DNA of 64,000 nucleotides from an uncultured Chloroflexia bacterium. Its GTDB lineage: Bacteria > Chloroflexota > Limnocylindria > Limnocylindrales > CSP1-4. The stretch spans positions 832,001 to 896,000 of the forward strand of contig CAVVJT010000007.1 of assembly GCA_963748625.1 (NCBI GenBank). The letters are read 5' to 3'. The number at the start of each line of letters is the position of its first letter. Within the stretch, counting starts at the first letter, position 1. Below, one piece after another: positions 38,836-57,092 of the stretch. The translations under genes were made by a program, and so were the position numbers. The notes beneath the pieces are model-generated. The model did not search any database and was not told the origin of the DNA. It saw only the letters and a program-made list of their open reading frames with translations.

Positions 38836-38997
38836 GGGTCGCGGGTCCTCCAGGGCCGGCGACCTCGCAGCTGCCTCAGCTGGGCCGTGGCACGACGGCG
38901 CCGGTGGACCCGACTATAGCCACCCGTTCGAGGCCGGGCTCGCCGGCGCCCCGCCGAAGCCGGCATCGCGGCCCGGTCCGACGCCGGTGACCGGGGT

Positions 38998-39227
38998 CCT
39001 GCTCGGCACCGCGCCCCGGTCGGGCTCCGCGGCCTGCTCGGCACCGCGCCCCGGACGGGCTCCGCGGCCTGCTCGGCACCGCGCCCCGGTCGGGCTCCGC
39101 GGCCTGCTCGGCACCGCGCCCCGGTCCGAGTTCGCGGCCTGCTCGGCACCGCGCCCCGGTCCGAGTTCGCGGCCTGCTCGGCATCTCGCCCCGGTCCGAG
39201 TTCGCGGCCTGCTCGGCATCTCGCCCC
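38998..39227. repeat. 35-bp tandem repeat x6.5
   Basis: GCTCGGCACCGCGCCCCGGTCGGGCTCCGCGGCCT at 39001, 39036, 39071, 39106, 39141, 39176, 39211 (partial). Confidence 0.92.
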
Positions 39228-39367
39228 ACGTGGGGGCCGTTTCGCGCGATCGCCCGCACGACCTGCGCAGCAAACCTCGACTTCCGTGCCCGGACCACGC
39301 TCAGAACCCGCCGATTCGGCTCCCAGGTGGGGGGCGCGCAGAGATCTGGAGCGCGATGAGGTAGAAG

Positions 39368-39442
39368 TGGTCGGGGCGGTGGGATTCGAACCCACAGCCT
39401 CGTGCTCCCAAAGCACGTGCGCCACCGTTGCGCCACGCCCCG
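39368..39442 (-). tRNA. tRNA-Pro(TGG)
   Basis: Reverse complement CGGGGCG...CGTGC-TTTGGGA-GCACG...GGTTCGAATC...CGCCCCG-A-CCA cloverleaf. Confidence 0.96.
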
Positions 39443-39560
39443 ACAGGTTTCGTGCTCAGGAAGCGCATGTGCTTCCTGATTTCGGCCTCGCGGCTGGGCC
39501 TACACCGCTCCAATCGCATATGCTGGTCCTGCGGGAACCCATCTAGCGACCGGAGTTGGC

Positions 39561-40511
39561 GTGGTCACATCGCCGTCCAGCGAGCCCCATCATACGGCCC
39601 TCCCGGACCTCGTCCCGTTGCTTGCGTCATGGCGGCGGCATCTCGCCGCCCAACGGATGAGCCCGGCCACCCTCTCCACCTACTCTGCGGCGGTTGGCCA
39701 GCTCGACAAGTTCCTCGAGGCGCAGGCGATGCCGAGAGCGGTCGCTGCGATCCGGCGCGAGCATGTCGAGGCCTTCATCACCCACCTGCTGGGCAAGTTC
39801 AAGCCGAATACGGCCCACAACAGGTTTCGGGGGCTGAAGACGTTCTTCGCGTGGCTGGTGGACGAAGGTGAGATCTCCGATAGCCCCATGGCGCGGATGA
39901 AGCCCCCCAGGCTCACCGAGGAGCCCCCGCCCGTCCTCCGGGAGACGGACTTCACCCGCCTGCTCGAGGTCTGCGAGCGGGACAAGACCTTTGTCGGCCG
40001 CCGCGACGACGCCATCCTCCGCGCGTTCATCGACACCGGGGTCCGGCGCGGCGAGCTGCTCGGGCTGAAGCTCGAGGACGTGGATCTCGATCAGGGCCTC
40101 CTCAGGGTCACCGGCAAGGGGAGCCGCACCAGGATGGTGCCCGTGGGGGCCAAGACGGTGCGCTCGATCGACCGCTACCTGCGCGCTCGCAGCAAGCACC
40201 CCGACGCTGCTCGCCCCGAGCTGTGGCTTGGCCGGCGTGGGGTCCTGCGAGAGTCAGGCTTGGGGGACCTGATCCGCGACCGGGGCAACGAGGCCGGGCT
40301 CACGCTGCGCCTGCATCCGCACCTGTTCCGCCATGCCTACGCCCACTCGATGCTGGCCGCCGGCATCCAGGAGACCGACCTCATGGCGGTCGTCGGCTGG
40401 AAGAGCCGCGAGATGGTGTCCCGCTACGCGGCATCCACCCGGGCCGAGCGGGCCATCTCTGCGGCCCGGAAGCTCAGCCCTGTTGACCGGCTCGACGAGA
40501 CCAGGCGGTGA
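39561..40511 (+). CDS. Tyrosine recombinase/integrase (XerC/D-like architecture)
   Basis: SAM-like N-domain; catalytic R (TGVRRGE), K (GKG), HxxR (HLFRH), W (VGW), Y (SRY). Confidence 0.95.
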   Translation: MVTSPSSEPHHTALPDLVPLLASWRRHLAAQRMSPATLSTYSAAVGQLDKFLEAQAMPRAVAAIRREHVEAFITHLLGKFKPNTAHNRFRGLKTFFAWLVDEGEISDSPMARMKPPRLTEEPPPVLRETDFTRLLEVCERDKTFVGRRDDAILRAFIDTGVRRGELLGLKLEDVDLDQGLLRVTGKGSRTRMVPVGAKTVRSIDRYLRARSKHPDAARPELWLGRRGVLRESGLGDLIRDRGNEAGLTLRLHPHLFRHAYAHSMLAAGIQETDLMAVVGWKSREMVSRYAASTRAERAISAARKLSPVDRLDETRR

Positions 40512-41755
40512 AGGGCGACCTGATCGAGACCGACTGCAGGGCCTGCGGTCAGCTCGTCCACATCGTCGAGGGTGGTGACTGCCCGGCCTGTGGCGCGGGC
40601 CCGGCTGTGCCCTCGGATGAGCGCGTCACCATTGTCAGCGGCCGTGCCGTGAAGGTCCCGAGGGACTTCTTCGGACGACAGGCAATGTGGCTCAGCACCA
40701 GACCCGCACGCCAGACGATCGCCGTCGACAGCAGGCGGCGGGTTCGAGATGTCCCATCTCCTTCCAGGAAGCGGCGACGCGGGCGGATTTCAGGCGATCG
40801 TGCTTGGAAGGCCGTCCTATCGCGCATAGGCCCGCGAACCTCCAACAACCGGCCACAGCCGTTCGTTACGCTACCGGTGGCAGTTGACCGCGCACCCCCG
40901 GTGCGGCGAGGGGCGTCGAGCAGAGGGCAGCCGATGGAGTTTCTGATCCTGACGGTGTTCTGGGGGTGCATCTGGGGCGCCCTATGTGCCTGGTTGGCGG
41001 GCGAGAAGGGCCGCGACGGAACGACCTGGTTCGTCCTAGGCTTCCTGTTCTCTCTTGTCGCCTTGCTCGTGCTCGGCTTCTCACCGTCAGGCGAACCGCC
41101 GCAGACCGTCGCGAGATCAACTGCCACGTTCGGGTCGCTCGACCTGGCACGCACACCACCGCCGGCGAGGGCGAGCACGTCCGGGGCACCAAGAAGCAAT
41201 GCCTCGAAGCGGTGCCCGGACTGCGCCGAGGAGGTGAAGGCCGAAGCCAGGATCTGCCGGTTCTGCCGCTATGAGTTCCCACCGACGCCAGAACCTCAGT
41301 TCGAGCCCGAGTCGGCCGCCGACGAGCAGTTGCTGCCACCAGTCGTGCTGGACCTGGGGCGCTGGGAGATGGCGTCTGCGGACACCGGCTTCCGGATGGG
41401 CGAGACCATCACTCTGTGCCGTGATGGCACGGCCCTCGAGGTCCGCTCCGCGCGGTTTACACGCCGGATCAGCATTCCCGACCGCGACCGCATCCAGGCC
41501 GAGGCCGACCGCCTGCGAGTCTACGATCCGATCTATGCGATGTCGTTCGCACCCTTGGACTCCCAAAGCACGTGCGCCACCGTTGCGCCACGCCCCGACA
41601 GGGAACTAGGCTACACCGCTTGCTCGTTGGGCCACCGGGCAGACGGCGCAGGAGTCACGCCGATACCGCCCCGTCGGCAACCGCCTACGGAGAGCGTCCG
41701 ACGAGAAGCAGCACGACAGCCGGAACGAGGCCGACCGCGACCACCAGCGAGATGA
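40508..41755 (+). CDS. Zn-ribbon/membrane protein ORF; probable internal start at 40934; reads through att copy
   Basis: N-terminal CxxC-CxxC with GTGA overlap on the integrase; 'MEFLILTVFWG...EKGR' TM hairpin; 'KRCPDCAEEVKAEARICRFC' zinc ribbon. Confidence 0.6.
   Translation: MKGDLIETDCRACGQLVHIVEGGDCPACGAGPAVPSDERVTIVSGRAVKVPRDFFGRQAMWLSTRPARQTIAVDSRRRVRDVPSPSRKRRRGRISGDRAWKAVLSRIGPRTSNNRPQPFVTLPVAVDRAPPVRRGASSRGQPMEFLILTVFWGCIWGALCAWLAGEKGRDGTTWFVLGFLFSLVALLVLGFSPSGEPPQTVARSTATFGSLDLARTPPPARASTSGAPRSNASKRCPDCAEEVKAEARICRFCRYEFPPTPEPQFEPESAADEQLLPPVVLDLGRWEMASADTGFRMGETITLCRDGTALEVRSARFTRRISIPDRDRIQAEADRLRVYDPIYAMSFAPLDSQSTCATVAPRPDRELGYTACSLGHRADGAGVTPIPPRRQPPTESVRREAARQPERGRPRPPAR
41560..41602 (-). 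repeat. Junction J1: tRNA-Pro(TGG) 5'-half copy
   Basis: 43 nt identical to 39405-39447. Confidence 0.95.
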
Positions 41756-42539
41756 CGGCCATCGGGCGGAACCAGGTGAGGCAGCCTGCGTGCTCCCTGT
41801 CCACAATCCTGCCTTCCGATCCGTAGAGCCGCCTCAACGCCCGGCTCTCGCGTCGCTGAAGCGCCTCGAAGTCCCGAACGCTGAGACCCAGCGCCAGCGC
41901 TTCGGCCTCAACCCGCAGTTGATCGCCGTCCCGCATCTGGCGCTCGTACTCCTCCATCGGGATCAGATCGCCCCTGGGGCCCCGCGAGCGTTCAAGGTCG
42001 GAGTACCTCCGCACCCGATCGCTCCGCTGCCGCTTGAGGTTCGCCATGTACTCCAGATAGGTGACCCCAGCCGCGCGAGCGGCGGCAGCGTACAGCTCGC
42101 GCCGCTGTGCATCCTGGGCCTCGAGCACCGGCAGCAGCCGGAGGCGAAGGGCGTTGTAGTCCCGCCGGTACTCCGCGACACGAGCCCAGGCCGCGTCCTG
42201 GTAAGCCTCGGTGCCTTCTGCCGCCCGGGCGCGTCGGTGCCACCACTTCGCCTCGTAGTCGAGCCGCCACAGGGCTGCGTCGGCGGTCGCCCAGCTGGGC
42301 TCACGCGTGAGCGTGCCCGAGCAGTCCGGGCATGTCCTGAACGTGCCAGGGCTCCACCGCTCGCAGTCGACGCAGACGGGCATGCCGCGAGTCTTGTGGG
42401 GGTCGATCACCGCAGGCCAGAGCCGATCGTCCCAAGTCGGCGGCATCGGCCGGCGCGGCAACCTCCTGAACACAGGCTCGAAGGGATGCTCCGGGCACCA
42501 GATGCACGTGTCAACGCGGCCGCGGGAGGCGGCGGCCAT
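41685..42539 (-). CDS. Hypothetical Zn-ribbon protein with C-terminal TM
   Basis: 'CVDCERW...CPDCSG'; fills the J1-J2 interval. Confidence 0.55.
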   Translation of the reverse strand: MAAASRGRVDTCIWCPEHPFEPVFRRLPRRPMPPTWDDRLWPAVIDPHKTRGMPVCVDCERWSPGTFRTCPDCSGTLTREPSWATADAALWRLDYEAKWWHRRARAAEGTEAYQDAAWARVAEYRRDYNALRLRLLPVLEAQDAQRRELYAAAARAAGVTYLEYMANLKRQRSDRVRRYSDLERSRGPRGDLIPMEEYERQMRDGDQLRVEAEALALGLSVRDFEALQRRESRALRRLYGSEGRIVDREHAGCLTWFRPMAVISLVVAVGLVPAVVLLLVGRSP

Positions 42540-42582
42540 GGAGCACGTCGCCTAGGAGGTGACCGAGTTGTTGTCCGTGATT

Positions 42583-42770
42583 GTGCTCGCGAAGCCCCTA
42601 ATACTCGGTGCCTACGCCGCTCAGCAGTTCGTGCTTGGAGGGGCCGACCCTACCCCGCATAGGCCCCAGCGGCTCCCAAAGCACGTGCGCCACCGTTGCG
42701 CCACGCCCCGACAGATTCCACGCTCAGGAAGCGCAAGTGCTTCCGCACGAGCCCCACAAGGCTAGCCTGC
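42583..42770 (-). repeat. Junction J2: left arm + tRNA 5' half (42673-42712) + right arm
   Basis: 40/40 tRNA-derived core; conserved flanks shared with J3-J5. Confidence 0.93.
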
Positions 42771-42847
42771 CGCGCGGCGCTCCCGGGTGCTGCAACAGGG
42801 CCGGCTCCTGCGTCGTCATATGCACGCGTCCGCGGAAGGCAGGGGTC

Positions 42848-43849
42848 ATGCGGCGACACCTCCATCTTCTCGTCATGACGGCGATCCTCATCGGATGTGG
42901 ACCGGCTGGCCGGGAGGCGGCGGCTCCTGATCCGTCGATCCTGAACCCCAGGATCGCGTCGCCGGGTATGTTCGGGTCCGGTGGCCAGTCACAGGAGCCC
43001 TCCCTCAGGCCGTCGACCGCGCCGACGACCGGGCCATCGATGGCACCCTCATCATCGCCCGTGACGACACCATGCCCTGCAGTCTCGCCAGCCGCGGTCG
43101 CAGGCACCCGGGTCCGCCCGAAGGTGGACAGCCTCGCCGCCGTGATGACCGACAGCCTTCGCGTGCGGTCACAGCCCGGGCTCGCGGCAGACTCGAAGGT
43201 GCTGCACCGGAGGCTCATGCGCCGCGACGTGGTGTACGTGGTGGCGGGGCCGGTCTCGGCATCGTGCTACGCCTGGTACCAGGTCTACATCCCGTACGAC
43301 CCGGCACACGACCGGGACGAGACGTTCGGATGGGTCGCTGCGGCCAGCATCGAGGGCGAACCGTGGCTCGTCGGCGGTCAGCACCTCTGCCCAGAGCCGC
43401 CCAGGACCGTGTCGGACCTGGCTGACCTGCCGAGCAGCGTTGGCCTGGCGTGCTTCACAGGGCGACGGCTCACCTTCGAGGCATGGCTGGGCACCTACGA
43501 GACGTGCGGGATGTCCGAGGGGTGGACCATCGAGCCTCGCTGGCTTGGCGACACCTGCGCCGGCAACGACTACATGTGGATCGCCGACCGGAGAGCTCGT
43601 AACGCCAGCGACTTCGGCGCGAACGAGCCGGTCCCCGCCGTCATCGCGCCGAAGGTGGACACGTCGCGATTCCACCCGGGCAATCTGCCGAAGGAGTGGA
43701 TCCCAGTCAAGGTGACCGGGATCTTCGACCACAGGGCTGCGAGATCGTGCCACGGCGTCTCCGAAGGGGAGACCGTACCGATCACCGACGACCAAGCCGT
43801 CCTGCAATGTCGCGCCGAGTTCGTGATCACCTCGATCCAGAGGCGATGA
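42848..43849 (+). CDS. Lipoprotein with SH3-like domain and Cys-rich C-domain
   Basis: Lipobox LIGC; 'LRVRSQPG...WYQV...GWVAA'; paralog of 57297-58262. Confidence 0.75.
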   Translation: MRRHLHLLVMTAILIGCGPAGREAAAPDPSILNPRIASPGMFGSGGQSQEPSLRPSTAPTTGPSMAPSSSPVTTPCPAVSPAAVAGTRVRPKVDSLAAVMTDSLRVRSQPGLAADSKVLHRRLMRRDVVYVVAGPVSASCYAWYQVYIPYDPAHDRDETFGWVAAASIEGEPWLVGGQHLCPEPPRTVSDLADLPSSVGLACFTGRRLTFEAWLGTYETCGMSEGWTIEPRWLGDTCAGNDYMWIADRRARNASDFGANEPVPAVIAPKVDTSRFHPGNLPKEWIPVKVTGIFDHRAARSCHGVSEGETVPITDDQAVLQCRAEFVITSIQRR

Positions 43850-43876
43850 CCGCCGACCAGTAGTCGCCGTCGACCC

Positions 43877-44085
43877 GTGCTCGCGTAGCCCCAAATAGTC
43901 GGTGCCTACACCGCTCGGGGATCCACGCTCAGGACCACCGATCCTACAACGCTTACGCCCCCGGGACCCCCAAAGCGCACGTGCGCCACCGTTGCGCCAC
44001 GCCCCGACTGATTTCGTGCGCAGAAGCGCCTGCGCTTCGCGAGCGGCGCCCACAAGCCTTGCCTGCCGTGCTCCCAGCGCACGAT
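43877..44085 (-). repeat. Junction J3: left arm + tRNA 5' half (43967-44008) + right arm
   Basis: Core with one substitution and a 2-nt insertion; conserved flanks. Confidence 0.9.
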
Positions 44086-44312
44086 GCGTGCCTGCGGGAG
44101 GGCAGCCTGGGCCCGGCGTGGTCGCCGGTCCGGGGCCCTTCGCCTCTCGACACTCCGGCGCGTCACGATCATCGTTGCCGCCAGCAAGACACATCGATGC
44201 GTGGCCCATACCAAGGGCCGCTGGACCCCGCTGAGCCACCGATCGGCCGCACCGGAAGGGCGTTCCCGGCGACACCGTGTAGCAGATCTGCTCCCGGACG
44301 CATCTATAGGGC

Positions 44313-44852
44313 ATGAACGGTCAGGTGATGGGCGGTCAGAGGGTCGTCACCACGGTCGAGCTCGCGGGGGCCGGCGACGAGGCGGCCTTCGCCCAGTTGG
44401 TGGCGACCTATCACGCCGACATGGCCCGGGTCGCGTTTGTCGCCTGTGGCGACAGGGACCTGGCCGAGGACGCGGTCCAGGCGGCCTGGCTCGTCGCCTG
44501 GCGCAAGCTCCACTCGCTGCGGGATCCAGATCGGGTCCGCCCATGGCTCCTCTCGGTGACCGCCAACGAGGCCCGCCAGATCGTCCGCCGGCGCCGCGGT
44601 CCGGTCATCGAGATCGATGTCGAGGCGGCCGGCGATCCCCGCGGCGACCCGTCGGACGGTATCGAGCGCCTCGACCTCCGCCGGGCGCTGGCGCACCTCT
44701 CGCCCGACGACCGCACCCTGCTCGCCATGCACTACCTCGTCGACCTCAGCTCGGACGAGCTCGGCGCGGCCGTCGGCACGTCGTCGTCGACCGCCCGCAC
44801 GCGGCTCTCACGGGCCGTCGAGCGCCTCAGGAAGGAGCTCCGCGATGGCTGA
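44313..44852 (+). CDS. ECF sigma-70 factor
   Basis: 'GDEAAFAQLV', 'LAEDAVQAAWLVAWRKLHSLRDPDRVRPWL', 'TARTRLSRA'. Confidence 0.92.
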   Translation: MNGQVMGGQRVVTTVELAGAGDEAAFAQLVATYHADMARVAFVACGDRDLAEDAVQAAWLVAWRKLHSLRDPDRVRPWLLSVTANEARQIVRRRRGPVIEIDVEAAGDPRGDPSDGIERLDLRRALAHLSPDDRTLLAMHYLVDLSSDELGAAVGTSSSTARTRLSRAVERLRKELRDG

Positions 44853-46650
44853 TCGCGATCGCTTCGAGCTCGACCTCGCCGTGGCTCTCCGCGCCTACGC
44901 GGAGGACGCGCCGACGCAGATCCGTCCGACGGAGCTCGCCCGGCACTTCGCCACTGCGTACCCCCACGGGCGAACCGCGATCGGTCGCTGGGGTCTGGTG
45001 GCCGTCCCGCGCCGCGCCTGGGCCCTGCTCCTGCTAGCGGCCCTGCTCGCCGCGATGCTCGGCGGCATGAATCTCGTCGGCTCGCCGATGCTGCGAAGGC
45101 TCCCGGCCGTCGTGACGCCCGTCGGCCAGGTGTTCGAATGTCCGACCGGATCGACGCCCGACGAGCCCGGCCCGATCGACCAGGCCCGGCCGGCCCATGA
45201 ACCGGCAACACTCTCGGCGATGGCGTTCGACCGCCGGGCCGGCAGACTCGTGACTCTCGCGGACATCCTCACGGGCGACGAGGTCACTGGCACCCAGACG
45301 TGGACGTTCGACGTGTGCACGAACACCTGGACGCGTATGCACCCGGACCGGGAGCCGCCCAGCTCAAGCCATGGGCTCGTCTACGACGTCGACTCCGACG
45401 TGACGATCCTGGTCACCGCCCGGGAGGTGTGGGCCTACGACCTCGGGGCCGACACCTGGACGCTGAAGGGCTCCGTCCCTCCGTTCGACCCGACGGCTTC
45501 CGACCTGGCGGCGTCCTGGGCCTACGACCCGGTCACGGGCCTGGTCGTCACCGCGGCAGCGGAGTTCGCCGCGGGACCCGACTACAGAGCCCGTCCGCCG
45601 CGGCTCTGGACCTACGACGTCGCCACCGACACGTGGACGCCGATCCGCCAGGACAGCCCGCCGGCCTCCTGGGATCGCGGTGTGGGCTTCGCCTACGACG
45701 CGTCAGCGGACAGGTTGATCGCGTTCGGCGTCTATCAATCGACGGGACGCCGGGACGAGACGTGGACCTTCGACCTCCGCACCGGCGCCTGGTCGAGGGC
45801 CGGCGCCGACACGCCGCAGATCGTGGGCGTATGGGGGATGGCAGAGTATCCCCCGGTGATGGTCTACGACGAAGCGGAACAGCGGACCCTCGTCTCCGGC
45901 CATGGCGGCCTGGCCGCTTACGATGCGACCGCGGATCGCTGGGAGAACCTGAACGGGATCGATGCCCGTCAGGGATCGGTCGAGTTCGGCGAGTTGGGCC
46001 CCTCAGCCGAGTGGTCAATGGACATGTACGACTCCGTGAACGGACGGCTCGTCGGCCTCGGCGGCGGCAACGGCATCTGGGCGTTCGACCCGGCGACCGG
46101 CCAGTGGACAGTCCTGCTCGAAGGGCGTGAGGTGGTGAACCCACCGACCGACGACGAGGTGGGTATGGCCGTGTCACCTCGGCCGGGCTGGGCCCCGGAG
46201 CTCGAGGCGCTGCTCCCTTCGAACGTGGACGGCGTGACGTTCACGAAGACGAGCGTGGCCGGCCGGCCTCTCTCGACCCGCCTCGGCAAGGGCGGTTGGG
46301 GGTCGGTGCCGCTCGGGTCCGACGAGCTGAACCCGTTCCTGGGTGACCACGGGAAGGGACTCACCGACCTGAGCATCGCCGTCGCGACCCCGATCGATCG
46401 GTCGCGGGCGGACACCTTCGCCATCGCGTTCCAGGTGAAGGGCGTCGAGGCGACGGAGTTGGCCAGGCTCCTGGCAGACCCCTACACCGCCATCGACGCG
46501 AGGTCCGCCATCGTCGGCGGGAAGGAGGTCCAGAGAATCCGGGAGACCCGGGGGATGGGCTTCGACCTGTACGTCAAGGACGATGTCCTGTTCTACGTCT
46601 TCACCGACGGCACCCCGCTCATCGACGGGATCGTCGCGGCCCTGCCCTGA
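44845..46650 (+). CDS. Putative anti-sigma factor with extracellular Kelch-like beta-propeller
   Basis: 8-bp overlap with sigma; short cytoplasmic N-terminus, TM, repeated 'W(T/A)(Y/F)D....TW' blades. Confidence 0.8.
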   Translation: MADRDRFELDLAVALRAYAEDAPTQIRPTELARHFATAYPHGRTAIGRWGLVAVPRRAWALLLLAALLAAMLGGMNLVGSPMLRRLPAVVTPVGQVFECPTGSTPDEPGPIDQARPAHEPATLSAMAFDRRAGRLVTLADILTGDEVTGTQTWTFDVCTNTWTRMHPDREPPSSSHGLVYDVDSDVTILVTAREVWAYDLGADTWTLKGSVPPFDPTASDLAASWAYDPVTGLVVTAAAEFAAGPDYRARPPRLWTYDVATDTWTPIRQDSPPASWDRGVGFAYDASADRLIAFGVYQSTGRRDETWTFDLRTGAWSRAGADTPQIVGVWGMAEYPPVMVYDEAEQRTLVSGHGGLAAYDATADRWENLNGIDARQGSVEFGELGPSAEWSMDMYDSVNGRLVGLGGGNGIWAFDPATGQWTVLLEGREVVNPPTDDEVGMAVSPRPGWAPELEALLPSNVDGVTFTKTSVAGRPLSTRLGKGGWGSVPLGSDELNPFLGDHGKGLTDLSIAVATPIDRSRADTFAIAFQVKGVEATELARLLADPYTAIDARSAIVGGKEVQRIRETRGMGFDLYVKDDVLFYVFTDGTPLIDGIVAALP

Positions 46651-46700
46651 CGTTGGCGGAACCGCCATCGACCGTGAGAGCGTCCCGAAGGAGAGAAGGG

Positions 46701-46982
46701 ATGAAGGCGCGCAGCTCGCCCGTTCGGCTGCTGGTCGCCCTGGCCTGTCTGGCCCTGCTGGCCGGGTGCGCCGCCCCCGCGAGTCCGACTCCAGCTTCGG
46801 CAACCCCGGATTTCAGCGAGCCTCCCCTCGGCGGCGGTCACGACACCGGCGACTGCCACAACGGCTACCACGGCCCCCACGCCGGCTCCCACACCGAGCG
46901 TCGAAGTGGCGGTTCGTGCTTGGAGGGGCCGACCCTACACCGCATAGGCCCCAGCGGCTCGGGCACCTCGCCTCTGGCCTGA
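46701..46982 (+). CDS. Small lipoprotein, probably truncated by the half-junction
   Basis: Lipobox LAGC, good RBS; C-terminus is encoded by junction arm sequence. Confidence 0.45.
   Translation: MKARSSPVRLLVALACLALLAGCAAPASPTPASATPDFSEPPLGGGHDTGDCHNGYHGPHAGSHTERRSGGSCLEGPTLHRIGPSGSGTSPLA
46912..46960. repeat. Half-junction (left arm only)
   Basis: 48/49 identical to 42627-42675; stops just inside the tRNA core. Confidence 0.9.
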
Positions 46983-47013
46983 AACACCGGGAGGGCCGTG
47001 GCGTCTCATCGCC

Positions 47014-47586
47014 GTGGATCCCGTGATCTCTCCCCTCGAGGCGGTCGATGCCGCAGGCGCCCACCGCGCCGCGCAGGCGGATGCGGCCGTCGTGGCCGCG
47101 TGGACCGCCCACCACGCGGAGGTCTTCGCGTTTCTCGTCCGGACCACCCGCAGCCCGGAAGCTGCCGAGGATCTCCTCCAGGAGGCGTACCTGCGCCTGA
47201 CCACCGAGATCCGGGCCGGCCGGGCGCCGGACAACACCCGGGCCTGGCTCTACCGCGTGAGCGCCAACCTCGCGGTCAGCCGCGGGCGGCGCCTCTCGGC
47301 CGCCTTCCGGGGGATCGTCAGGATCCGCAGCACCTCCGCGCCACTCACGACGACCTTCACCCCGGAGGCGAGCTACCTCGGTCGCGAGGGCCGGGCCGGC
47401 CTCCTCGCGGCCCTCGCGGACCTGGCGCCCGATGCCCGGGCCGCGCTCCTGCTGTCGGCCGAGGGCTTCACCGGTGCCGAGATCGCCGCCGCGATCGGGC
47501 GCTCCGATGCCGCAACCCGGACCCTGCTCTGCCGGACCCGCGTCCAGGTCCGTGGCCGGCTCGAAGGGGCGGAGGCCGTCCGATGA
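47014..47586 (+). CDS. ECF sigma-70 factor
   Basis: 'AAEDLLQEAYLRL...RAWLYRVSANL', 'EIAAAIGRS..ATRTLLCR'. Confidence 0.9.
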   Translation: MDPVISPLEAVDAAGAHRAAQADAAVVAAWTAHHAEVFAFLVRTTRSPEAAEDLLQEAYLRLTTEIRAGRAPDNTRAWLYRVSANLAVSRGRRLSAAFRGIVRIRSTSAPLTTTFTPEASYLGREGRAGLLAALADLAPDARAALLLSAEGFTGAEIAAAIGRSDAATRTLLCRTRVQVRGRLEGAEAVR

Positions 47587-49424
47587 CGTCCCACGACACG
47601 TTCCTGCAGCTCGCCGCCATCGCGGTCGACTACCCGCTCTCGTCCGGCGATCGCGGCCGCCTCGAGGCGCACCTCGCCTCGTGCCCGGCCTGCGCCCGCT
47701 CGGCCCACGGCTTCCGGGCCGACGCCATCGCCTTCGGGGACCTGCCGCCCGCCGTCCTGCCGGAGCGCCGCGGGGCCGAGATCCTCGCCGCGGCCATGCA
47801 CCCGGCGACCGTCCGGCACCCGCTCCGGCTGGTGCTCGTCGCCGCCCTGCTTGCCCTGCTGGCCCTCGGCTCGCTCGTCGCCGGGGCGGAGCTGCTACGG
47901 CGGAGCCAGGACGACGACCTCTCGGTCGTGCCCCCGGTACCGACGGAGACGCCCGTCGCGACGGAGACGCCCGGCCCGGTGCCGTCGGCCTCGGTCATGC
48001 CGTCGGTCTCCCTCGCGCCGTCGGCCCCGCCGGTGAACAGGCCCGTGGTCACTCCGGCCTCGTTGCCGCTGCCATCGGGCTCCGTCTCGCTCGCACCGGC
48101 CGCGGCCGGCGGCGTCTGGGTCCTTGTGAACGACCTGCCCAACCTCTCCAGTGAGTCGGGCCGAGCGGTCCTCGCGCTTCTCACCAAGGACGGCGAGCCC
48201 GCCCCGGGCTGGCCGCAGGAGATCCAGGATGTGGACTGCAGCATGTGGGCCGGCAGCGAGTGGGCCGGCATCCCGGCATCGCCGGCGTCGCAGCTGCCGG
48301 TTGTCGCCCCGGACGGCAGCGTCCGCCTCCTGTGCTGGACGGCACCCCCGGATGCGACATCAGCCGTGTTCGCGCTCTCGTTCGACGCCGCCGGCGCAGC
48401 GTCCCCCGGATGGCCGGTCATGCTGCCGTCTGACCCGGTCGACGCCCGGCTGATCGACGACACGCTGGTCATTGCGACATCTTCGCTGACCACCGACGCT
48501 GAGGGGAACGTGCTGGAGGTCGAGTATCGGATCCTGCGGATCAGCGCGGCCGGGCAGCTCGAGCAGGGTCAGGCGGTTGCGCCGGTCGATCTGGGGAACT
48601 ACGCGCCGAACCTGAGGATAGATGGGGCGCCGAACCTGGCCGCCGATGGGGTCGCGTTCCTCAGATGGGTCCGTGACGAAGGCCCCGAACCGGCAACCGA
48701 CATCCTGGCGTTTGGGTTTGACGGCGCACTGCCGGGCTGGCCGGTCTCGGTGCCCGGAATCGTCTCGGCCGTCGTCACCGGGCCGGATGGGCGCTACTAC
48801 GCGACTGCCTCGGCGAGGGCCAAGGATGCGGACGCGCTCGCCCCAAGCCAGAAGCTCGTCGCGCTCACCCCCAGCGGGACGCTGTCCGTCGGGTTGGATC
48901 TGCCCGTGGCTGGAATCTCCGCGGCCACGTTTGCGGGCGGGTACGCACCGCTCAGGCCCACGCTCGGGCCCGGCGGATCCGCGTGGGTCCCGGGCGTCAA
49001 CACCCGCGACAACGTCGTCGTCCACGCGCTCGGACCGGACGGCATGGTCCGCGACGGGTGGCCGTGGCGGGCCGGTGCGCCTATCGAGGAGCAGGGCGAG
49101 TGCGGGCAGGGCGAGACAGGATGCGGCGTGTGGCGGACCGTGCCAGCCCTCGGACCCGGTGAGGTGCTCCTGGTCCTCCTGGGGCCGGCTGATCGGACGA
49201 GCGGCGGGCAGGTCGTCGCGGTCGGGCCGGATGGGCGGGTCGTTGACGGCTGGCCGGTGACGCTCACGAACCCGGCCGGGCGCTGGGATGTGGTGGTGGC
49301 CGGCACCGACGGGACGGTCTACGCGACGGCGATCGAGTCCGGCGCCCGCACGTCGACGACCACGCTTCTCGCGATCGCGCCGGACAGCGAGGTGGTCTGG
49401 CGGTCGACGCTCGTCGGCAAGTGA
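47583..49424 (+). CDS. Zinc-binding (zf-HC2) anti-sigma factor with large extracellular repeat domain
   Basis: ATGA overlap; HxxxCxxC 'HLASCPAC'; TM; recurring 'PGWP' repeats. Confidence 0.85.
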   Translation: MTSHDTFLQLAAIAVDYPLSSGDRGRLEAHLASCPACARSAHGFRADAIAFGDLPPAVLPERRGAEILAAAMHPATVRHPLRLVLVAALLALLALGSLVAGAELLRRSQDDDLSVVPPVPTETPVATETPGPVPSASVMPSVSLAPSAPPVNRPVVTPASLPLPSGSVSLAPAAAGGVWVLVNDLPNLSSESGRAVLALLTKDGEPAPGWPQEIQDVDCSMWAGSEWAGIPASPASQLPVVAPDGSVRLLCWTAPPDATSAVFALSFDAAGAASPGWPVMLPSDPVDARLIDDTLVIATSSLTTDAEGNVLEVEYRILRISAAGQLEQGQAVAPVDLGNYAPNLRIDGAPNLAADGVAFLRWVRDEGPEPATDILAFGFDGALPGWPVSVPGIVSAVVTGPDGRYYATASARAKDADALAPSQKLVALTPSGTLSVGLDLPVAGISAATFAGGYAPLRPTLGPGGSAWVPGVNTRDNVVVHALGPDGMVRDGWPWRAGAPIEEQGECGQGETGCGVWRTVPALGPGEVLLVLLGPADRTSGGQVVAVGPDGRVVDGWPVTLTNPAGRWDVVVAGTDGTVYATAIESGARTSTTTLLAIAPDSEVVWRSTLVGK

Positions 49425-49469
49425 CGCCAAGCCCACCCGTCAGCGCTGCCGGCAACACGGCTGTCTGTC

Positions 49470-49631
49470 GTGCTCCCGTAGCCCCGAATAGTCGGTGCCT
49501 ACGCCGCTCGGCTCGCCACGCTCATGACCCCCGACCCTGCACCGCATAGGCCCCGGGGACTCCCAAAGCACGTGCGCCACCGTTGCGCCACGCCCCGACT
49601 GATTTCGTGCTCAGGAAGCGCATGTGCTTCC
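49470..49631 (-). repeat. Junction J4: left arm + tRNA 5' half (49560-49599) + right arm
   Basis: 40/40 core; flanks conserved. Confidence 0.93.
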
Positions 49632-49865
49632 GGCTCGAGTCCGATGTGCCGAAGCTACAGCGCTTCCTCGTCGGCGTGCGCCGGCCGATCTGGCCGTGCC
49701 GGAGCGCGCAGCGCCATTCCATGAGCCCGAGTGCTCTCGCGCAACACCTGGATGCGGCCGATCGTTTCAGCAACGGCGGCGAGACTGGAGTCGAAGCCCG
49801 CGAGCCGGGCTCGGCCGCAGGGCGACCGGTCTCAGCCGGCAACCCAGCGTCCCGAGGAGTGCGGG

Positions 49866-52196
49866 ATGAACGGCATGGCCAGCCGGTGGTGCATCAGGAC
49901 TTCGGCCTGGTGGTTGTTCAGCCTGATCGCGGCCCTGCTCGCGGCTGGCTGTGCCGACGGAACCCCGGTGAAGCCCACTCCGCCCGTCGAGCCACCGGCC
50001 ACGATCGAGCCGGCAGTGACATCGGGGCTGCCCGCGCCAACGCCGACCAGCTCGCCGGCCCCCACACCGAAGCCCGGCTGGAACCAGGCCGCGCCCATGC
50101 CGCGCGAGCGAACCGGGTTTGATGCGGTGCTCATGGGCGACGGCACCGTCCTTGTGGTCGACGACGATCCGTCCAGCGACCTTGCTGCGCCAGGGAGCGA
50201 GCTCGTGGACGTGTACGACCCTGCGACTGACACCTGGCGCCCGGCCGAGAGCCTGAACAAGCCGCGAGCTGGCGCGGCCACGGTGGTACGCCCGGATGGG
50301 ACGGCGCTCGTGATTGGGGGGACCAACAGCGATGGGCAGGCATTCTCCAGCACGAAGGTCCTCGCCACGACGACGACCAGCTGGGAGGCGGGGCCACTGA
50401 TGAAGGTCGCGAGGATGTCGCCCGAGGCCGTGGTCCTGGGCAATGGTCACGTCCTCGTCGTGGACCAGACGGACAGCCGCCCGGTCACGACCACGAGCGA
50501 GCTCCTCGGCCCCCGCGGGAAGGCATGGACCACCCGCCGGACGCTGTCCGGCCATGTCGTCGCCGTCGACGCCCTCGTGCGGGCGGGCAACCACGGTGCG
50601 CTGGCCCTCGGCTGGGAGCGCGATGCCCATGTTGCTGACTCGATGCAGCCGGCGGCCCGCTACTACGACGCGTTCTTCGACACCTGGAAGACGGTCCCCG
50701 TTCCGAAGCTGCAGGTGCAGCCGGCGCTCGTCACGCTCCCCGACGGCAGGGTCCTCGCCGTCGGCGGCAACGGCGGCGGCGAGCTGGTGGGTCACCCGAA
50801 CACCCTGGCCACCGTCAGGGTGTTCGACCCAGCCCGGGCGAAATGGACGAATCTGGCGCCGATGGCGGAACCGCGCGAGAGCGCGCAGGTGGCGATGCTC
50901 GCCGACGGACGCGTGCTCGTCGCGGGCGGCATGCAGCGGACCACAGACGGCGGGCCGCCGCCGATCCTCGCATCATCGGAGATCTACGATCCAGGCACGG
51001 ACAGCTGGTCAACGGGCCCCGCCCTGCTCGAGCCGCGCGCCGGTGGCGCTGCGGTCACCCTTCGAGACGCGACGGTCCTCGTGCTCGGCGGGCAGGGTCT
51101 TATGGGCAGCCTCGTCACGGTCGAGCGCTTGTGGCTGGACGCCTCCACTTCCGCAGGACGGGAGCTCAACCCGACGCTCCTGCACTGGGACGCGATCGGG
51201 CAGCTTCCCTCGGAGGATGAAGGGCAGCTCATCGGCTTCGACAAAGGCTATGTCTACGTGGGCTACAGGGTGTGGTTCTCACCGGACGGCATGAGCTGGG
51301 AGGTGATCGAGCCACAACGCGCGATCTGTGACGACCCGGACTCGACCGCTCTCATCGCCAGCATCGTGTGGGCAGGAGCAACCGACGGCCACGAGGTCAT
51401 GCTCGTCGGATACCAGCTCGACGACTGCGTAGGGGGTTCACCGACGCCAGCCTCGTGGATCACGTCCGATGGCGTCACGTGGGAGCAGTCCCCGGCGGTG
51501 GAGCTGTCGAGGGGCTCTGGCGACATGCGCGAGGTGTGGGCAGTGCCGGACGGCTGGGAGGCGAGTGTCTACCTGCACAAGACCGACGACTTCGCTCGCT
51601 GGATCTCGATCGACGGCCTGACGTGGCAGAGCGCCCGGGCCCTGCCCGTCGATCTCAGCGCTGTGGCGCCTGACGGCACCCGAGTCGGCATCCGCCATCG
51701 CAAGACCGGAAGGAAGGAGACCCTCGTCGCGTCGACCGATGGACAGGCGTGGCGGGTCATCGACGCGCCCGTGCGCGGCGGGGTGGGTGCCGTGGTGCCA
51801 CCGGCGGCCGCCGGAGACCCGTGGATCGTGGTCAGCGAGACGGAGACCCAGTTGACGTTCGCCGCCTCGCGCGACCTTGTCCACTGGTCCTCGGTCTCCA
51901 CTCCGTACGCGTTCATCGACGGCATCACGCAGGCCCCACGTGGAGTCTTCCTGCTGTCGAGCGAGCCGTGCTGGGAAGGCCTTGGCGCGGGCCCTGCGCC
52001 GAGCGCGGGGCCTCCAGACTGCCCAGCGGACGGCGAGGTCGTGATCGACCTGCACATGAGCGCCGACGGTCTGCGCTGGGTGGATGTCGTCACCCCGGGC
52101 CCGCTCGTGGCAATCGCCGATGGGCCCGCTGGGACGCTGGCGGTCGAGTGGAACGACGGCAGCGGCGCTACGCGCGTCTGGCGCCTGGATCAGTAG
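49866..52196 (+). CDS. Kelch-repeat lipoprotein with C-terminal BNR-like propeller
   Basis: Lipobox AAGC; 'LADGRVLVAGG', 'EIYDPGTDSW'; 'SxDGxxW' repeats. Confidence 0.85.
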   Translation: MNGMASRWCIRTSAWWLFSLIAALLAAGCADGTPVKPTPPVEPPATIEPAVTSGLPAPTPTSSPAPTPKPGWNQAAPMPRERTGFDAVLMGDGTVLVVDDDPSSDLAAPGSELVDVYDPATDTWRPAESLNKPRAGAATVVRPDGTALVIGGTNSDGQAFSSTKVLATTTTSWEAGPLMKVARMSPEAVVLGNGHVLVVDQTDSRPVTTTSELLGPRGKAWTTRRTLSGHVVAVDALVRAGNHGALALGWERDAHVADSMQPAARYYDAFFDTWKTVPVPKLQVQPALVTLPDGRVLAVGGNGGGELVGHPNTLATVRVFDPARAKWTNLAPMAEPRESAQVAMLADGRVLVAGGMQRTTDGGPPPILASSEIYDPGTDSWSTGPALLEPRAGGAAVTLRDATVLVLGGQGLMGSLVTVERLWLDASTSAGRELNPTLLHWDAIGQLPSEDEGQLIGFDKGYVYVGYRVWFSPDGMSWEVIEPQRAICDDPDSTALIASIVWAGATDGHEVMLVGYQLDDCVGGSPTPASWITSDGVTWEQSPAVELSRGSGDMREVWAVPDGWEASVYLHKTDDFARWISIDGLTWQSARALPVDLSAVAPDGTRVGIRHRKTGRKETLVASTDGQAWRVIDAPVRGGVGAVVPPAAAGDPWIVVSETETQLTFAASRDLVHWSSVSTPYAFIDGITQAPRGVFLLSSEPCWEGLGAGPAPSAGPPDCPADGEVVIDLHMSADGLRWVDVVTPGPLVAIADGPAGTLAVEWNDGSGATRVWRLDQ

Positions 52197-52312
52197 GGAC
52201 GGTGCAGCTCGGTGTTGCCGACGGTGATCCTCGTCGGCGCAGCCTGCTTCGTGGCCACGACAGCCCTCGCGTCGAGAACGACCTCCTGGGGAGTGGACCA
52301 CGCGCCCGGCCC

Positions 52313-52518
52313 GCTCGCGTAGCCCTCAATGATCGGCGCCTTCACCGCTCGGCGGTTCGTGCCTGAAGGGGCCGAGGGTAGACCGCTCAGCTCCGCGAGG
52401 CTCCCAACGCACGTGCGCCACCGTTGCGCCACGCCCCGACAGGTTTCACGCTCAGGAAGCGCATGTGCTTCGTGAGCGACGACTCGAAGCCTTGCCTGCC
52501 GTGCTCCCGTCGCACGAT
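52313..52518 (-). repeat. Junction J5: left arm + tRNA 5' half (52401-52440) + right arm
   Basis: 39/40 core; right arm close to J0 and J3. Confidence 0.92.
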
Positions 52519-52552
52519 CCGGATGCCGTGCCGCGGCCGCGCGGCCCTTCTT

Positions 52553-53545
52553 TCAGAACGCCCGGTTGCGCCGGGCCGCCAAGAGGATTGCCTCGGCCTC
52601 CTGGTAGGTGCGATTGAGCTGGGCCGTCTCGATGAACGTCATGAACACGCGATCGGCTGGGATGAGCTGGCCGATCAGCACCGACACGACCGTGGCGGGA
52701 CCTCGATCGGCGATGCTCTCGGCCACGGCCCGATCGAACGTCGCTGACACGAAGGTCCGCGGTGGCGGGACGCGAAGCGGGCCCTCGCTGGTCAGACCCC
52801 GATACAACCAGAGCCGGTCCTGCCCAGCGGCTCGAAGCATCGCTCGCACGAAGCCAAGGCGGGCGACGACATGATCGGCGCGCCGCTCCTCGCTCCACGC
52901 ACCGGCGAAGAGGTCCGGGTCCCGCACGACCTTGCCGCGGTACGGGACAAGCCCCAGCCGGGCGATCACGATCTCGTGGCCCTTGACCATCTCGCCCGAT
53001 GACGGATTGCTGACATACCGCTCGGCGAACATCCTCTCCATGTCGGTCATCGCACGGGCGGCCATGTGGTCGGCGAGGAGGCGCTGGACGAAGGCGTCGC
53101 CGACGCGTCCGTTGACGTCGATGCGGAGCGGTGCGTCGCCAAGGATGACCGCAGCTGCGCGTTCCTCCTCCCGAAGACGGGCCTGCGTCCGGGCCCGAGC
53201 CCGGGGGTCCACCGGGATGGCGAGTGAACGGCTGAACCGGTCGACCGCCGCGGCGAAAGCGGTCAGCGTCGCGGCATCTGCGCGCCGGGCATCAAGCTCG
53301 AATTGGAAATGGCAGACCCGCTCCGCCTCGATCAGCCAGCGAGCGCCGCGATCCTCGAACGCCAGCACCTCGACCTCGAAGGTGCCCAGATCCACGTCGA
53401 CTGCCCGGATCGCCACGGGAGTTCGCCGGGTGTCGAGCATGCGGCCCGCATTGCCGGGCACGAGGTGGTGGAGCTCACCCAGCACGAAGCTGCTATCGGG
53501 CGCCTGATCGGGAGTGGACTCGTGGATCGGCTTGGATGTGCCCAC
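52553..53545 (-). CDS. Hypothetical protein with C-terminal ADP-ribosyltransferase-like motifs
   Basis: 'LYRGL...FVSATFD...QEAEAIL' (R-S-ExE); start uncertain (GTG 53545). Confidence 0.55.
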   Translation of the reverse strand: MGTSKPIHESTPDQAPDSSFVLGELHHLVPGNAGRMLDTRRTPVAIRAVDVDLGTFEVEVLAFEDRGARWLIEAERVCHFQFELDARRADAATLTAFAAAVDRFSRSLAIPVDPRARARTQARLREEERAAAVILGDAPLRIDVNGRVGDAFVQRLLADHMAARAMTDMERMFAERYVSNPSSGEMVKGHEIVIARLGLVPYRGKVVRDPDLFAGAWSEERRADHVVARLGFVRAMLRAAGQDRLWLYRGLTSEGPLRVPPPRTFVSATFDRAVAESIADRGPATVVSVLIGQLIPADRVFMTFIETAQLNRTYQEAEAILLAARRNRAF

Positions 53546-57000: not shown

Positions 57001-57092
57001 TCACGGTGAACGTGACAGTCGTCTCCTCCGGCAAGAAGGTCGTCATCGACGGCCTCCTCATCAAGGGCGCATGGGACGACCTCGCCTGGTGA
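54036..57092 (+). CDS. Secreted RCC1-repeat/Fn3 protein, internally duplicated
   Basis: Many 'HxCAIxxDGxxxCWG' repeats; two 'SYDVRYR' Fn3-like and two 'ATTCPTCG' modules. Confidence 0.85.
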   Translation: MARIAHRTGRRVLVALVVAVLASASPSAGGPGPGAGRATASTAAPTTPVKAVEAGGLQTCAILGDGTLRCWGDMLLVPDPPAGTFESISMSATSACAIRTDGAMTCWDIEDDGGAPAPGGTFKQVETGPYHSCAIRSDGSVTCWGTNWYGETQAPDGEYTDLVTGDFWSCGLLVDGSVTCWGGDPEGSPRPSLSGKFVALGGPEPLCGIHDDGSARCWDWEGEYSASGSYLDIDGRCAVRADRTLFCWGDEPDAGTNGLALVPAGSFDSVSTGFWHACALAGTAMTCWGNNYATQVVPAPTPTMIGPAPWRSTAMTTVEWAARPALSAVTSYDVRYRRASATGGFGAWTTWLTGTTQTSAAFATSPGYTYCFAVRAHDASGAISWWTNQGWNLGETGCTTTPVDDRALVRSAGWDSVSDPALFRSTGLRTTRQGATLKLNDVRAGWVVLLATTCPTCGSVKVAVAGHGSRSLSLRSPVTTTRFLPAFYEDVDGRVDVTVTVTSSSGQVQVDGLLVSPLELGPAWADADNPPQPVSASVTRGATDISAGDGHTCAVTVDGGLACWGNNSDKQSEAPAGLFTSVAAGGTLSCGVRNDGAAVCWGGDSAWSWDDPPAAPAGTFKRLVFTSMDDLCGIRTDNSLWCGGGEDELPPGQFASLATDGLAACAVRTDGELICWGEGPVAVDAPGGVFTTVDVSRGHACAIADDGHLECWGDNEVGQATAPDGTFKAVTTGSSHSCAIRGDGTIACWGDAEYGELLAPSGTFTGISAGGRHTCAFAAETVACWGQNRDGQANPTPTTTVGALAPYTVAKTTRVTWSASGLAPITSYDVRYRVAPWNGSFGDWVAWQTATAATTAARNVPAGSTVCHSARARDVDGVQSRWSGERCVRTPVDDRALARSTGWTKITGTAYYRGTGLRASRTGARLSLGGVRQWSGLYLVATTCPTCGVVRVTLGPYRSKRINLYSATRVDRKVIRVAPFNDDYAPTRVTVNVTVVSSGKKVVIDGLLIKGAWDDLAW

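Follow-up and report, generated by a model that had tools for sequence, protein, structure and literature searches.

How does one tRNA gene come to head a row of small gene units, each closed off by a copy of that tRNA's own 5' half, and what could set such units in motion? The question is raised by positions 39368-52525 of a stretch of 64,000 nucleotides (the window) from an uncultured Candidatus Limnocylindrales bacterium (Chloroflexota), a member of a soil and sediment lineage whose genome, coded G000, totals 4.63 Mb. At this locus an intact tRNA-Pro(UGG) gene stands next to a Xer-like tyrosine integrase and a one-directional array of tRNA-derived junctions with gene cassettes between them. 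We compared the locus with 70 genomes of the genus (G-numbers denote single genomes). The array most likely arose by site-specific tandem accretion, at the anticodon loop, of mostly non-autonomous att-flanked units, a mechanism that we propose with moderate confidence. The tRNA gene, the integrase and the junctions (J0 to J5, and a half-junction, Jh) lie as follows:

39368-39442, minus strand: intact tRNA-Pro(UGG) gene, the attB-like end of the array (ARAGORN; Rfam tRNA, 68.4 bits)
39405-39519, plus strand: J0, the tRNA 5' half (39405-39444) followed by an R arm (39445-39519); profile positions 92-207
39561-40511, plus strand: Xer-like tyrosine integrase of 316 aa, divergent from the tRNA (Pfam PF00589, 1.2e-25; SAM-like domains)
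40783-40880, plus strand: tentative decayed junction, an L-arm-like stretch and then an eroded core (weak nhmmer match to L-arm positions 41-94, E 0.067; sequence read)
41560-41632, plus strand: J1, an exact core and a "short R" arm, with GGCTACACCGC about 10 nt past the core (word search, alignment)
42582-42776, plus strand: J2, a full L-core-R module (nhmmer 189.6 bits; alignments)
43876-44090, plus strand: J3, a full module whose core has a 2-nt insertion and one mismatch (169.3 bits)
46909-46960, plus strand: Jh, the proximal L arm only (profile positions 44-95; comparison with G081)
49469-49688, plus strand: J4, a full module (nhmmer 189.1 bits), used as the query for junction searches of relatives
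52312-52525, plus strand: J5, the last full module, with one core mismatch (181.9 bits)

The tRNA-Pro(UGG) gene is the sole intact copy in the genome, and among the tRNAs of G000 it alone bears such an array. Searching the genome with its 5' half gave one match within the tRNA gene and five outside it. The word of 40 nt that recurs along the locus consists of this 5' half and two upstream bases. It is found exactly at 39405 (inside the tRNA), 41560, 42673 and 49560, with one mismatch at 52401, and as a variant core with a 2-nt insertion and one mismatch at about 43967. Five downstream copies, uniform in orientation with the tRNA, are thus accompanied by one half-junction, and the spacings along the row are 2155, 1113, about 1295, about 2945, about 2650 and 2841 nt. 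The word was matched in none of 100 shuffled sequences. As in known tRNA-gene islands, all displaced fragments are of one kind (5' halves), lie upstream of the tRNA and share its orientation. In the whole genome, all five matches of the word and all seven matches of a profile built from 30 junctions fall at the array. An earlier first-pass annotation of this DNA had described the intact tRNA, the copies with their intervals, and a half-junction at 46912; all of these were reproduced, the last as the L-arm remnant Jh, and the repeat is not scattered over the genome.

The repeat itself is much longer than the 40 nt that the first-pass annotation assigned to it. Alignment of 30 full junctions from 13 genomes defined a conserved module of about 215 nt with arms on both sides: an L arm of about 92 nt that begins with GTGCTCGCGTAGCCCC, the loop boundary, a core formed by the tRNA 5' half (38-40 nt), and an R arm of about 85 nt with the palindrome GGAAGCGCATGTGCTTCC and a distal CCTACAGCGCTC. 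At J0, the intact tRNA, the tRNA 3' half stands where the L arm would be and a normal R arm follows, with the same palindrome and a distal CCTACACCGC motif. Short motifs of the module include CCTACRCCGC and TTCGTGCT. CCTACRCCGC was matched 6 times against 0.37 expected, with five of the matches in modules; TTCGTGCTY, which repeats the left half-site of the tRNA anticodon stem, was matched 5 times against 0.47 expected, four times in modules.

Where the copies begin is equally sharp. Across 35 array segments, taken from 30 genomes of the genus, identity with the intact tRNA starts in every copy at the first base of the loop (the T of TCCCAAA), the edge that the annotation had pointed to. Such an edge is expected if strand exchange takes place in the anticodon loop and the 5' half comes with the incoming DNA. 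L arms were never found at an intact tRNA. The R arm matches the sequence upstream of the tRNA in array-free relatives (82-96% in G001, for example), and from its position and this identity to native upstream regions it may carry the tRNA promoter; a scan of 39300-52700 for sigma-70 consensus promoters gave no sites. The outermost R arm, that of J5, shares 85.8% identity with the native upstream sequence of G001 and is probably the original upstream region of the tRNA. A binding or terminator role may be proposed for the L arm.

Not all junctions are complete. The common L arm is absent from J1, whose short-R form recurs in G015 and on contig 13 of G085. At Jh the core and R arm are deleted, and the break lies exactly at the boundary between L arm and anticodon loop. 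The weak L-like arm and eroded core at about 40783-40880 suggest a length of only about 1.4 kb for the integrase unit, if this junction is real; the first interval of 2.2 kb probably consists of two units split by it.

Two further candidates were considered and rejected. An attC-like hairpin was sought with RNAalifold over the 30 junctions, which gave -6.7 kcal/mol on the plus strand and -20.4 on the tRNA-sense strand with no structure spanning the module, and an Rfam scan of the locus (E<=0.1) reported the intact tRNA only and no RNA family in the module. An assembly artefact was excluded, since the same architecture is present on long contigs of many independent genomes and on metagenome contigs.

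The junctions are conserved well beyond G000. The J4 query had matches in 58 of the 70 genomes, and at least one internal junction was present in 26 of the 70 (counted from the match table). Beyond the genus, scoring two candidates per genome gave matches extending into the L arm in seven other genera of the same family; in other families there were none among 16 genomes (f2) and 92 genomes (f3), and the two matches among 153 genomes (f4) covered the tRNA part only. All modules of an array segment have one orientation, starting at the tRNA. The largest counts were eight modules in G071, six in G058, and five each in G082, G015 and G055. The segments yielded 60 between-module intervals with a median length of 2.5 kb (range 0.15-14.8 kb). 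Among the 102 predicted array proteins were 11 extracytoplasmic function (ECF) sigma factors and four integrases; the remaining cargo included PD40, Kelch, AAA_16, cyclase and PIN/Phd proteins as well as singletons such as an aldehyde dehydrogenase and RtcB.

The same junctions enclose different cargo in different genomes. In G015 and G063 both flanks are 81-85% identical and the arrays have no cassette content in common. Cassettes that are shared sit at different positions. The cassette at 46959-49614 of G000 stands next to the tRNA in G081 (84.5% identity over 2.7 kb), the sigma gene at 47014-47586 is 90.6% identical to that of G058, and the first cassette of G069 matches about 1.4 kb of G000, from the J3 core through the sigma gene plus about 0.5 kb, at 88% identity. 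For syntenic core genes of these genomes the identity is 65-87%, so that the values for shared cassettes lie at or above the top of that range. Relatives of the sigma gene also occur outside arrays, at 72-79% identity, which links array genes to a chromosomal pool. These comparisons agree with the first-pass proposal of cassette-like units bounded by tRNA-derived sites, whose cargo varies between relatives.

A sister array was found at tRNA-Gly(UCC), at loci L129 (G066:C6:58600-78500) and L130 (G010:C8:108000-127500). The 5' half of this tRNA is present in five copies in G066 and three in G010, with its own conserved L and R arms and no integrase. One junction-exact unit of 8.8 kb occupies the fourth position in G066 and the first in G010 and is 96.7% identical between them, against 87.8% for the flank; on these sequence data it is the clearest case of modular exchange. 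In five genomes the 5' half of tRNA-Val(GAC) is doubled.

Repeats of 215 nt could also be reshuffled without any integrase. Under this alternative, homologous recombination, unequal crossover and gene conversion among the modules, possibly after DNA uptake, made or rearranged most of the array, and only the first event was site-specific. Some of the data fit. Within a genome, the variants of core and R arm are mostly of one kind (for instance in G055, G058 and G076), as gene conversion or homologous recombination among repeats, or exchange within a lineage, would produce: three copies in G055 share species-specific substitutions and an identical R arm of 30 nt, and all five cores in G058 share one substitution. 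Blocks comprising a junction plus 600 nt are duplicated within G071, and some cassettes have mosaic breakpoints, lying inside cassettes and not at junctions, in G071 compared with G073 and in G000 compared with G058, which have the sigma gene in common and different anti-sigma genes. Recombination among repeats does not predict the sharp left edge of identity at the anticodon loop in every junction, a deletion endpoint in Jh exactly at the loop boundary, or the restriction of L arms to sites other than the intact tRNA. The transfer of the 8.8-kb unit between G066 and G010 is junction-exact, and the cargo within arrays differs and bears no sign of duplication. We consider it very improbable that homologous recombination was the main force.

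If accretion at the loop was instead site-specific, the candidate agent in G000 is the integrase beside the tRNA. Its frame is intact, as first annotated; it is open over 316 aa and has Phage_integrase and SAM-like domains. The best NCBIfam matches are XerC, XerD and XerA, all under their cut-offs (XerC 158.5 vs. 335 bits, XerD 150.5 vs. 330 bits), and the closest solved relatives are XerD and XerA. The alignment with XerD is collinear (247 vs. 249 residues) with no large insertion, and the protein reaches 48.1 bits with the model of integron integrases, TIGR02249, whose cut-off is 265; the annotation's remark that an IntI-specific insertion is lacking thus holds. The R, K and HxxR motifs align to those of XerD, in keeping with the catalytic set of tyrosine recombinases, and the conserved Trp and the candidate Tyr (in ...SRYAA...) are assigned by position only; the C-terminal end reads ...VVGWKSREMVSRYAAS... 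The weak XerC and XerD scores and a site in the tRNA anticodon stem-loop also set the locus apart from XerCD/dif elements.

Relatives of the integrase belong to Candidatus Limnocylindrales and Limnocylindria (Chloroflexota). In a genus-wide search (E<=1e-20) the gene adjoined a tRNA at 23 of 24 paralog loci, and the 24th (L048) had no tRNA call. Ten tRNA species were represented, with tRNAs for Pro, Val, Thr, Ala, Met, Asn, Gly and Arg. Most paralogs are divergent from the tRNA 5' end, and distant relatives likewise adjoin tRNAs. Judged by its sequence relatives and their positions, the enzyme is a member of a tRNA-targeting family of mobile-element integrases. In-frame TGA or TAG codons flagged once in many paralogs were an artefact, being the natural stop codon at the gene end.

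Two observations concern the integrase-bearing elements themselves. A small conserved open reading frame (ORF) convergent to the integrase is present at L076 (4542-4940), at L035 (11095-11520) and in G005 and G083; it matched no Pfam family, which gave no basis for calling it an excisionase, and may encode an accessory or directionality factor. G000 is without it and has, overlapping the integrase stop at 40508, an ORF with a CxxC...CxxC zinc ribbon. Separately, a stretch of 602 nt is 100% identical between the elements of G009 (L078, 19399-20000) and G083 (L077, 5297-5898), with flanks at 88%, which indicates either very recent transfer or cross-assembly.

An intact integrase is found beside tRNA-Pro in nine of the 70 genomes (G000, G005, G009, G013, G022, G049, G067, G083 and G085). 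The search returned no integrase match in G071, G081, G082, G073, G076, G015 and G055, whose arrays have three to eight modules. In G000 the gene occupies one of six intervals, so the locus departs from the pattern of one integrase per island that the Islander collection expects. It lies within a repeat-bounded unit, and truncated N-terminal remnants adjoin R arms in four arrays (G015, G050, G063 and G080). The single resident recombinase assumed by the first-pass annotation is not what these distributions describe, and the annotation's further statement that the locus works like an integron stands as an analogy only.

Like an integron, the locus lines up small cassettes to one side and in a single orientation, with highly variable cargo, with toxin-antitoxin cassettes and, in G000, with a proximal tyrosine recombinase. 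One alternative takes the likeness literally and sees a true platform, in which a resident, vertically inherited recombinase at the tRNA captures and excises promoter-dependent cassettes as an adaptation system of the host. It would account for the integrase being the first gene after the tRNA in all nine genomes with an intact copy, for compact cassettes in which 68 of the 102 predicted genes point away from the tRNA, for the toxin-antitoxin cargo (PIN/Phd), and for a module conserved across genera. It sits badly with an integrase that is intact in so few genomes, unmatched in those with the biggest arrays, enclosed in a repeat-bounded unit and in places truncated, and whose family targets many different tRNAs in the manner of mobile elements. 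The low score against the integron-integrase model and the absence of an attC-like hairpin count against it as well. Integrons differ from the present locus in having an IntI-type enzyme, attC hairpins and a recombinase fixed at the array; here the sites are double-stranded modules derived from a tRNA, and they have to restore an essential tRNA. We regard a resident platform as decidedly unlikely.

The opposite alternative is a graveyard of independent genomic islands or prophage remnants, in which each unit lost its own integrase by deletion and nothing moves in trans. The integrase remnants next to R arms are what it predicts; they indicate that some units did lose an integrase, and integrase-less cassettes could thus be decay products. 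Junctions of G000 have decayed or been deleted (Jh, J1 and the site near 40800), cassettes are fused in G071, and a unit of 15 kb in G067 carries primase and HTH_17 genes typical of an autonomous element. Against it stand the intervals themselves. Integrase similarity (E<=0.01) was detected in 13 of the 60 (eight intact, one frameshifted and four remnants) and in none of the other 47. Units without an integrase bear full L-core-R modules on both sides, and the arms are 73-93% identical across genera, which is unexpected for dead DNA. Intervals of 3.5 kb or less make up 37 of the 60, with gene ends close to the arms: the distance between a stop codon and the beginning of the next L arm is 27-116 nt, equal to 118-205 nt from the 40-nt core, and not the 30-50 bp from the next junction that the first-pass annotation gave for some of them. 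In G050 and G080, moreover, an integrase-less cassette sits between the tRNA and the integrase remnant. This order is the product expected of later capture at the tRNA and favors capture in trans. A graveyard of once autonomous elements is, on balance, unlikely.

We therefore return to tandem accretion by mostly non-autonomous units, which would proceed as follows. Small mobile units in this bacterial family would carry an attP-like module made of an L arm, a crossover point in the loop, a tRNA 5' half and an R arm copied from the native region upstream of the tRNA, and the Xer-like integrase would exchange strands within the 7-nt anticodon loop. The integrase itself would ride on one such unit, placed next to the tRNA. 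Integrase units share the R arm with array modules, and those of G083, G085 and G050 end in the same kind of L-core junction. Each integration would provide the tRNA with a new 5' half and upstream region and push the earlier ones outward, so that the array would grow from the tRNA and every internal junction would read L-core-R. Most units contain one to three genes, often an ECF sigma/anti-sigma pair, and no integrase; these would be mobile only when an integrase-bearing unit acts in trans, and once the integrase is lost or decayed they would stay as fixed passengers.

Several observations weigh against this mechanism. The absence of an integrase homologue (E<=1e-20) from the largest arrays means that these may be immobile or that another enzyme may act there. 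The integrase remnants, the within-genome uniformity of core and R-arm variants and the breakpoints inside cassettes, all described above, belong here too. The integrase has no arm-binding domain, which leaves the conserved arms without explanation. Modules also occur away from any tRNA: two full modules lie on contig 10 of G060 (G060:C10, L113) with no tRNA nearby, and on contig 30 of G071 (G071:C30:248000-267000, L140) an L arm and a decayed core follow a sigma/anti-sigma unit, again with no tRNA nearby. These are secondary or translocated pieces of arrays.

Finally, we observed neither excised circles nor empty sites, and no polymorphism at the level of cassettes. A search for sequencing runs with 42800-52300 gave 20, all as Logan contigs, and the best word share was 0.11; at the read level only short unitigs were available, and the joints of the modules, with 21-32 nt per side and 90% likeness, are unreliable in metagenomes. 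The tRNA-Pro 5'-half pattern had no match in viral contigs. The junction pattern was found in nine metagenome contigs, all linear array fragments; a terminal overlap was present in none of the nine, and none contained an integrase. The sequences themselves show the anatomy of the array, its confinement to one locus, its conservation across genera, its variable cargo and the recurrence of cassettes at different positions. Crossover in the loop, circular intermediates, capture and excision, mobilization in trans, a promoter in the R arm and a binding or terminator role of the L arm are inferred.

A broader reading extends the mechanism to the whole family. It proposes an integron-like, independently evolved cassette system of Limnocylindria, in which packets of one to three genes (often an ECF sigma/anti-sigma pair) bounded by tRNA-derived modules of about 215 nt would be captured, shuffled and exchanged between species by a transient, minimal integrase cassette. 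The need to rebuild the tRNA and its promoter would select for intact sites, and parallel arrays would exist at tRNA-Gly(UCC) and possibly at tRNA-Val(GAC). We put this forward tentatively, as a possibility we would not yet bet on.

The genes between the junctions of G000 are listed below:

40934-41755, plus strand: ORF with a predicted membrane start and a zinc-ribbon motif (UPF0547/zinc-ribbon below cut-off) that reads through J1
41685-42446, minus strand: weak ORF of 253 aa with no family match (gene-caller score 25)
43124-43849, plus strand: cassette gene of 241 aa, no Pfam family, with a relative in the first cassette of G082
44313-44852, plus strand: ECF sigma factor (Pfam, gene call), in the cassette 44313-46650
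44845-46650, plus strand: Kelch-repeat protein downstream of this sigma factor (Pfam, gene call), same cassette
47014-47586, plus strand: ECF sigma factor (Pfam, gene call), in the cassette 47014-49424
47583-49424, plus strand: zf-HC2 anti-sigma protein (Pfam, gene call), same cassette
50127-52196, plus strand: Kelch-repeat cassette gene (Pfam)

The gene call at 40934-41755 is uncertain, and a caller based on codon usage did not make it. The two sigma factors share only 37% identity over 57 aa and are thus not recent in-place duplicates. The unit with the Kelch gene (49689-52311) had no match at E<=1e-40 in any of the 69 other genomes of the genus. Duplication of cassettes in place within G000 was rejected on these two grounds. 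A tRNA-Arg(cct) of 89 nt reported by ARAGORN at 49143-49231, inside the anti-sigma ORF, is probably a false call; Rfam gave none at E<=0.1.

To the left of the array is a MoxR/DUF58/DUF4129 operon that is syntenic with relatives at 65-87% DNA identity. Directly 3' of tRNA-Pro, about ten tandem copies of a 35-nt unit occupy 38928-39277; the period is not a multiple of three, and no gene was called there. Just right of the array, 54036-57092 encodes a large RCC1-repeat protein with five RCC1_2 repeats (8.8e-53). Also to the right of the last junction, 53663-53825 matches a stretch that follows an R arm in G058 (79%) and 58404-59750 matches the end of a G058 array cassette (84-90%); by this likeness they may be cassette-like material whose junctions are no longer recognizable. 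Other displaced tRNA fragments of G000 lie outside the window, on contigs C2, C4 and C7: a 3' half of tRNA-Thr(CGT) 18 kb from its gene, a 3' half of tRNA-Gly(TCC) 1.2 kb away, and incomplete copies of the tRNA-Pro(GGG) 5' half about 100 nt from their gene.

Among known systems, one parallel is offered by the cis-mobilizable elements (CIMEs) and the ICEs (integrative and conjugative elements) of the ICESt1 family, where accretion and mobilization place non-autonomous att-flanked elements in tandem with an element that has a tyrosine integrase. CIMEs are usually single and are derived from ICEs. Both features of CIME type that could be tested are present here, namely att-flanked units without an integrase and a related autonomous unit, and three of four integron features are missing. 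The locus differs from CIMEs in having up to eight modules in a row, in being family-wide and in using a tRNA 5' half as the target, and no conjugation genes were seen at this locus. Composite islands of the staphylococcal cassette chromosome (SCC) at rlmH and pdif modules likewise consist of modules that lack a recombinase and are delimited by the site of one supplied in trans. Their enzymes are the Ccr serine recombinases and the host XerCD, and their sites are the rlmH 3' end and dif-like 28-mers; both enzymes and sites differ from those described here.

The described case that comes nearest is in the same phylum: the ssrA islands of Dehalococcoides, as presented in the account by McMurdie et al. 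2011 (PMC3146451), stand in tandem downstream of a single-copy tRNA-like gene and are delimited by direct repeats of a fragment of that gene. Sixteen islands with an integration module and 15 without are described there, the latter proposed to be cis-mobilizable and to spread by accretion, and the sequence beside the repeat is also conserved (PMC3146451). Since integrase-less tandem islands were thus already on record in that paper, the accretion principle is not new. The ssrA islands as characterized there use the serine recombinase DsiB and a 20-bp repeat of the 3' end, and carry rdhA genes, 38 of them over the 15 module-less islands (PMC3146451); the present locus has a Xer-like tyrosine enzyme, a 5' half of 38-40 nt with about 175 nt of conserved arms, and intervals with a median of 2.5 kb.

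Integrases of the pTN3-like type in archaea resemble the system in another respect: according to the description in PMC8371274, the 5' half of a tRNA gene serves as their attB, and upstream sequence borne by the element provides for expression of the rebuilt tRNA. These are plasmids and viruses of archaea, each with its own integrase, and the same description contains no integrase-less cassette arrays (PMC8371274). Like our locus, the tDNA (tRNA-gene) islands of the Islander collection have a tyrosine integrase and a tRNA that is regenerated, with the displaced fragment lying in the same orientation and a site centred on the anticodon; in the figures given by PMC4383910, 159 islands have a 5' fragment and 3760 a 3' fragment, and tandems of three or more number four. 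As that paper states its rules, a tandem array is accepted only if each member has its own integrase (PMC4383910), and under this rule loci of the present kind would not come out as arrays. In the literature we found no cassette arrays at tRNA 5' halves for Limnocylindria or Chloroflexota besides the ssrA islands, and supplementary lists might hold further tandem 5'-fragment islands.

Mobilization in trans of the integrase-less units, of which no instance was observed, is the step that would make this locus important. Island finders that demand an integrase for every tDNA fragment and look mostly for 3' fragments have a blind spot for arrays of this kind. The short integrase, together with a defined site of about 215 nt, is a candidate recombination tool. 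The lineage is uncultured and lives in soil and sediment, where gene exchange is almost wholly undescribed, and the abundance of ECF sigma/anti-sigma pairs in the cargo hints that sensory modules change hands as whole units. Should the integrase-less units indeed be mobilized in trans, these bacteria would have a second, independently evolved route to integron-like arrays, built on double-stranded, tRNA-derived sites whose integrity would be enforced by the need to rebuild an essential tRNA.

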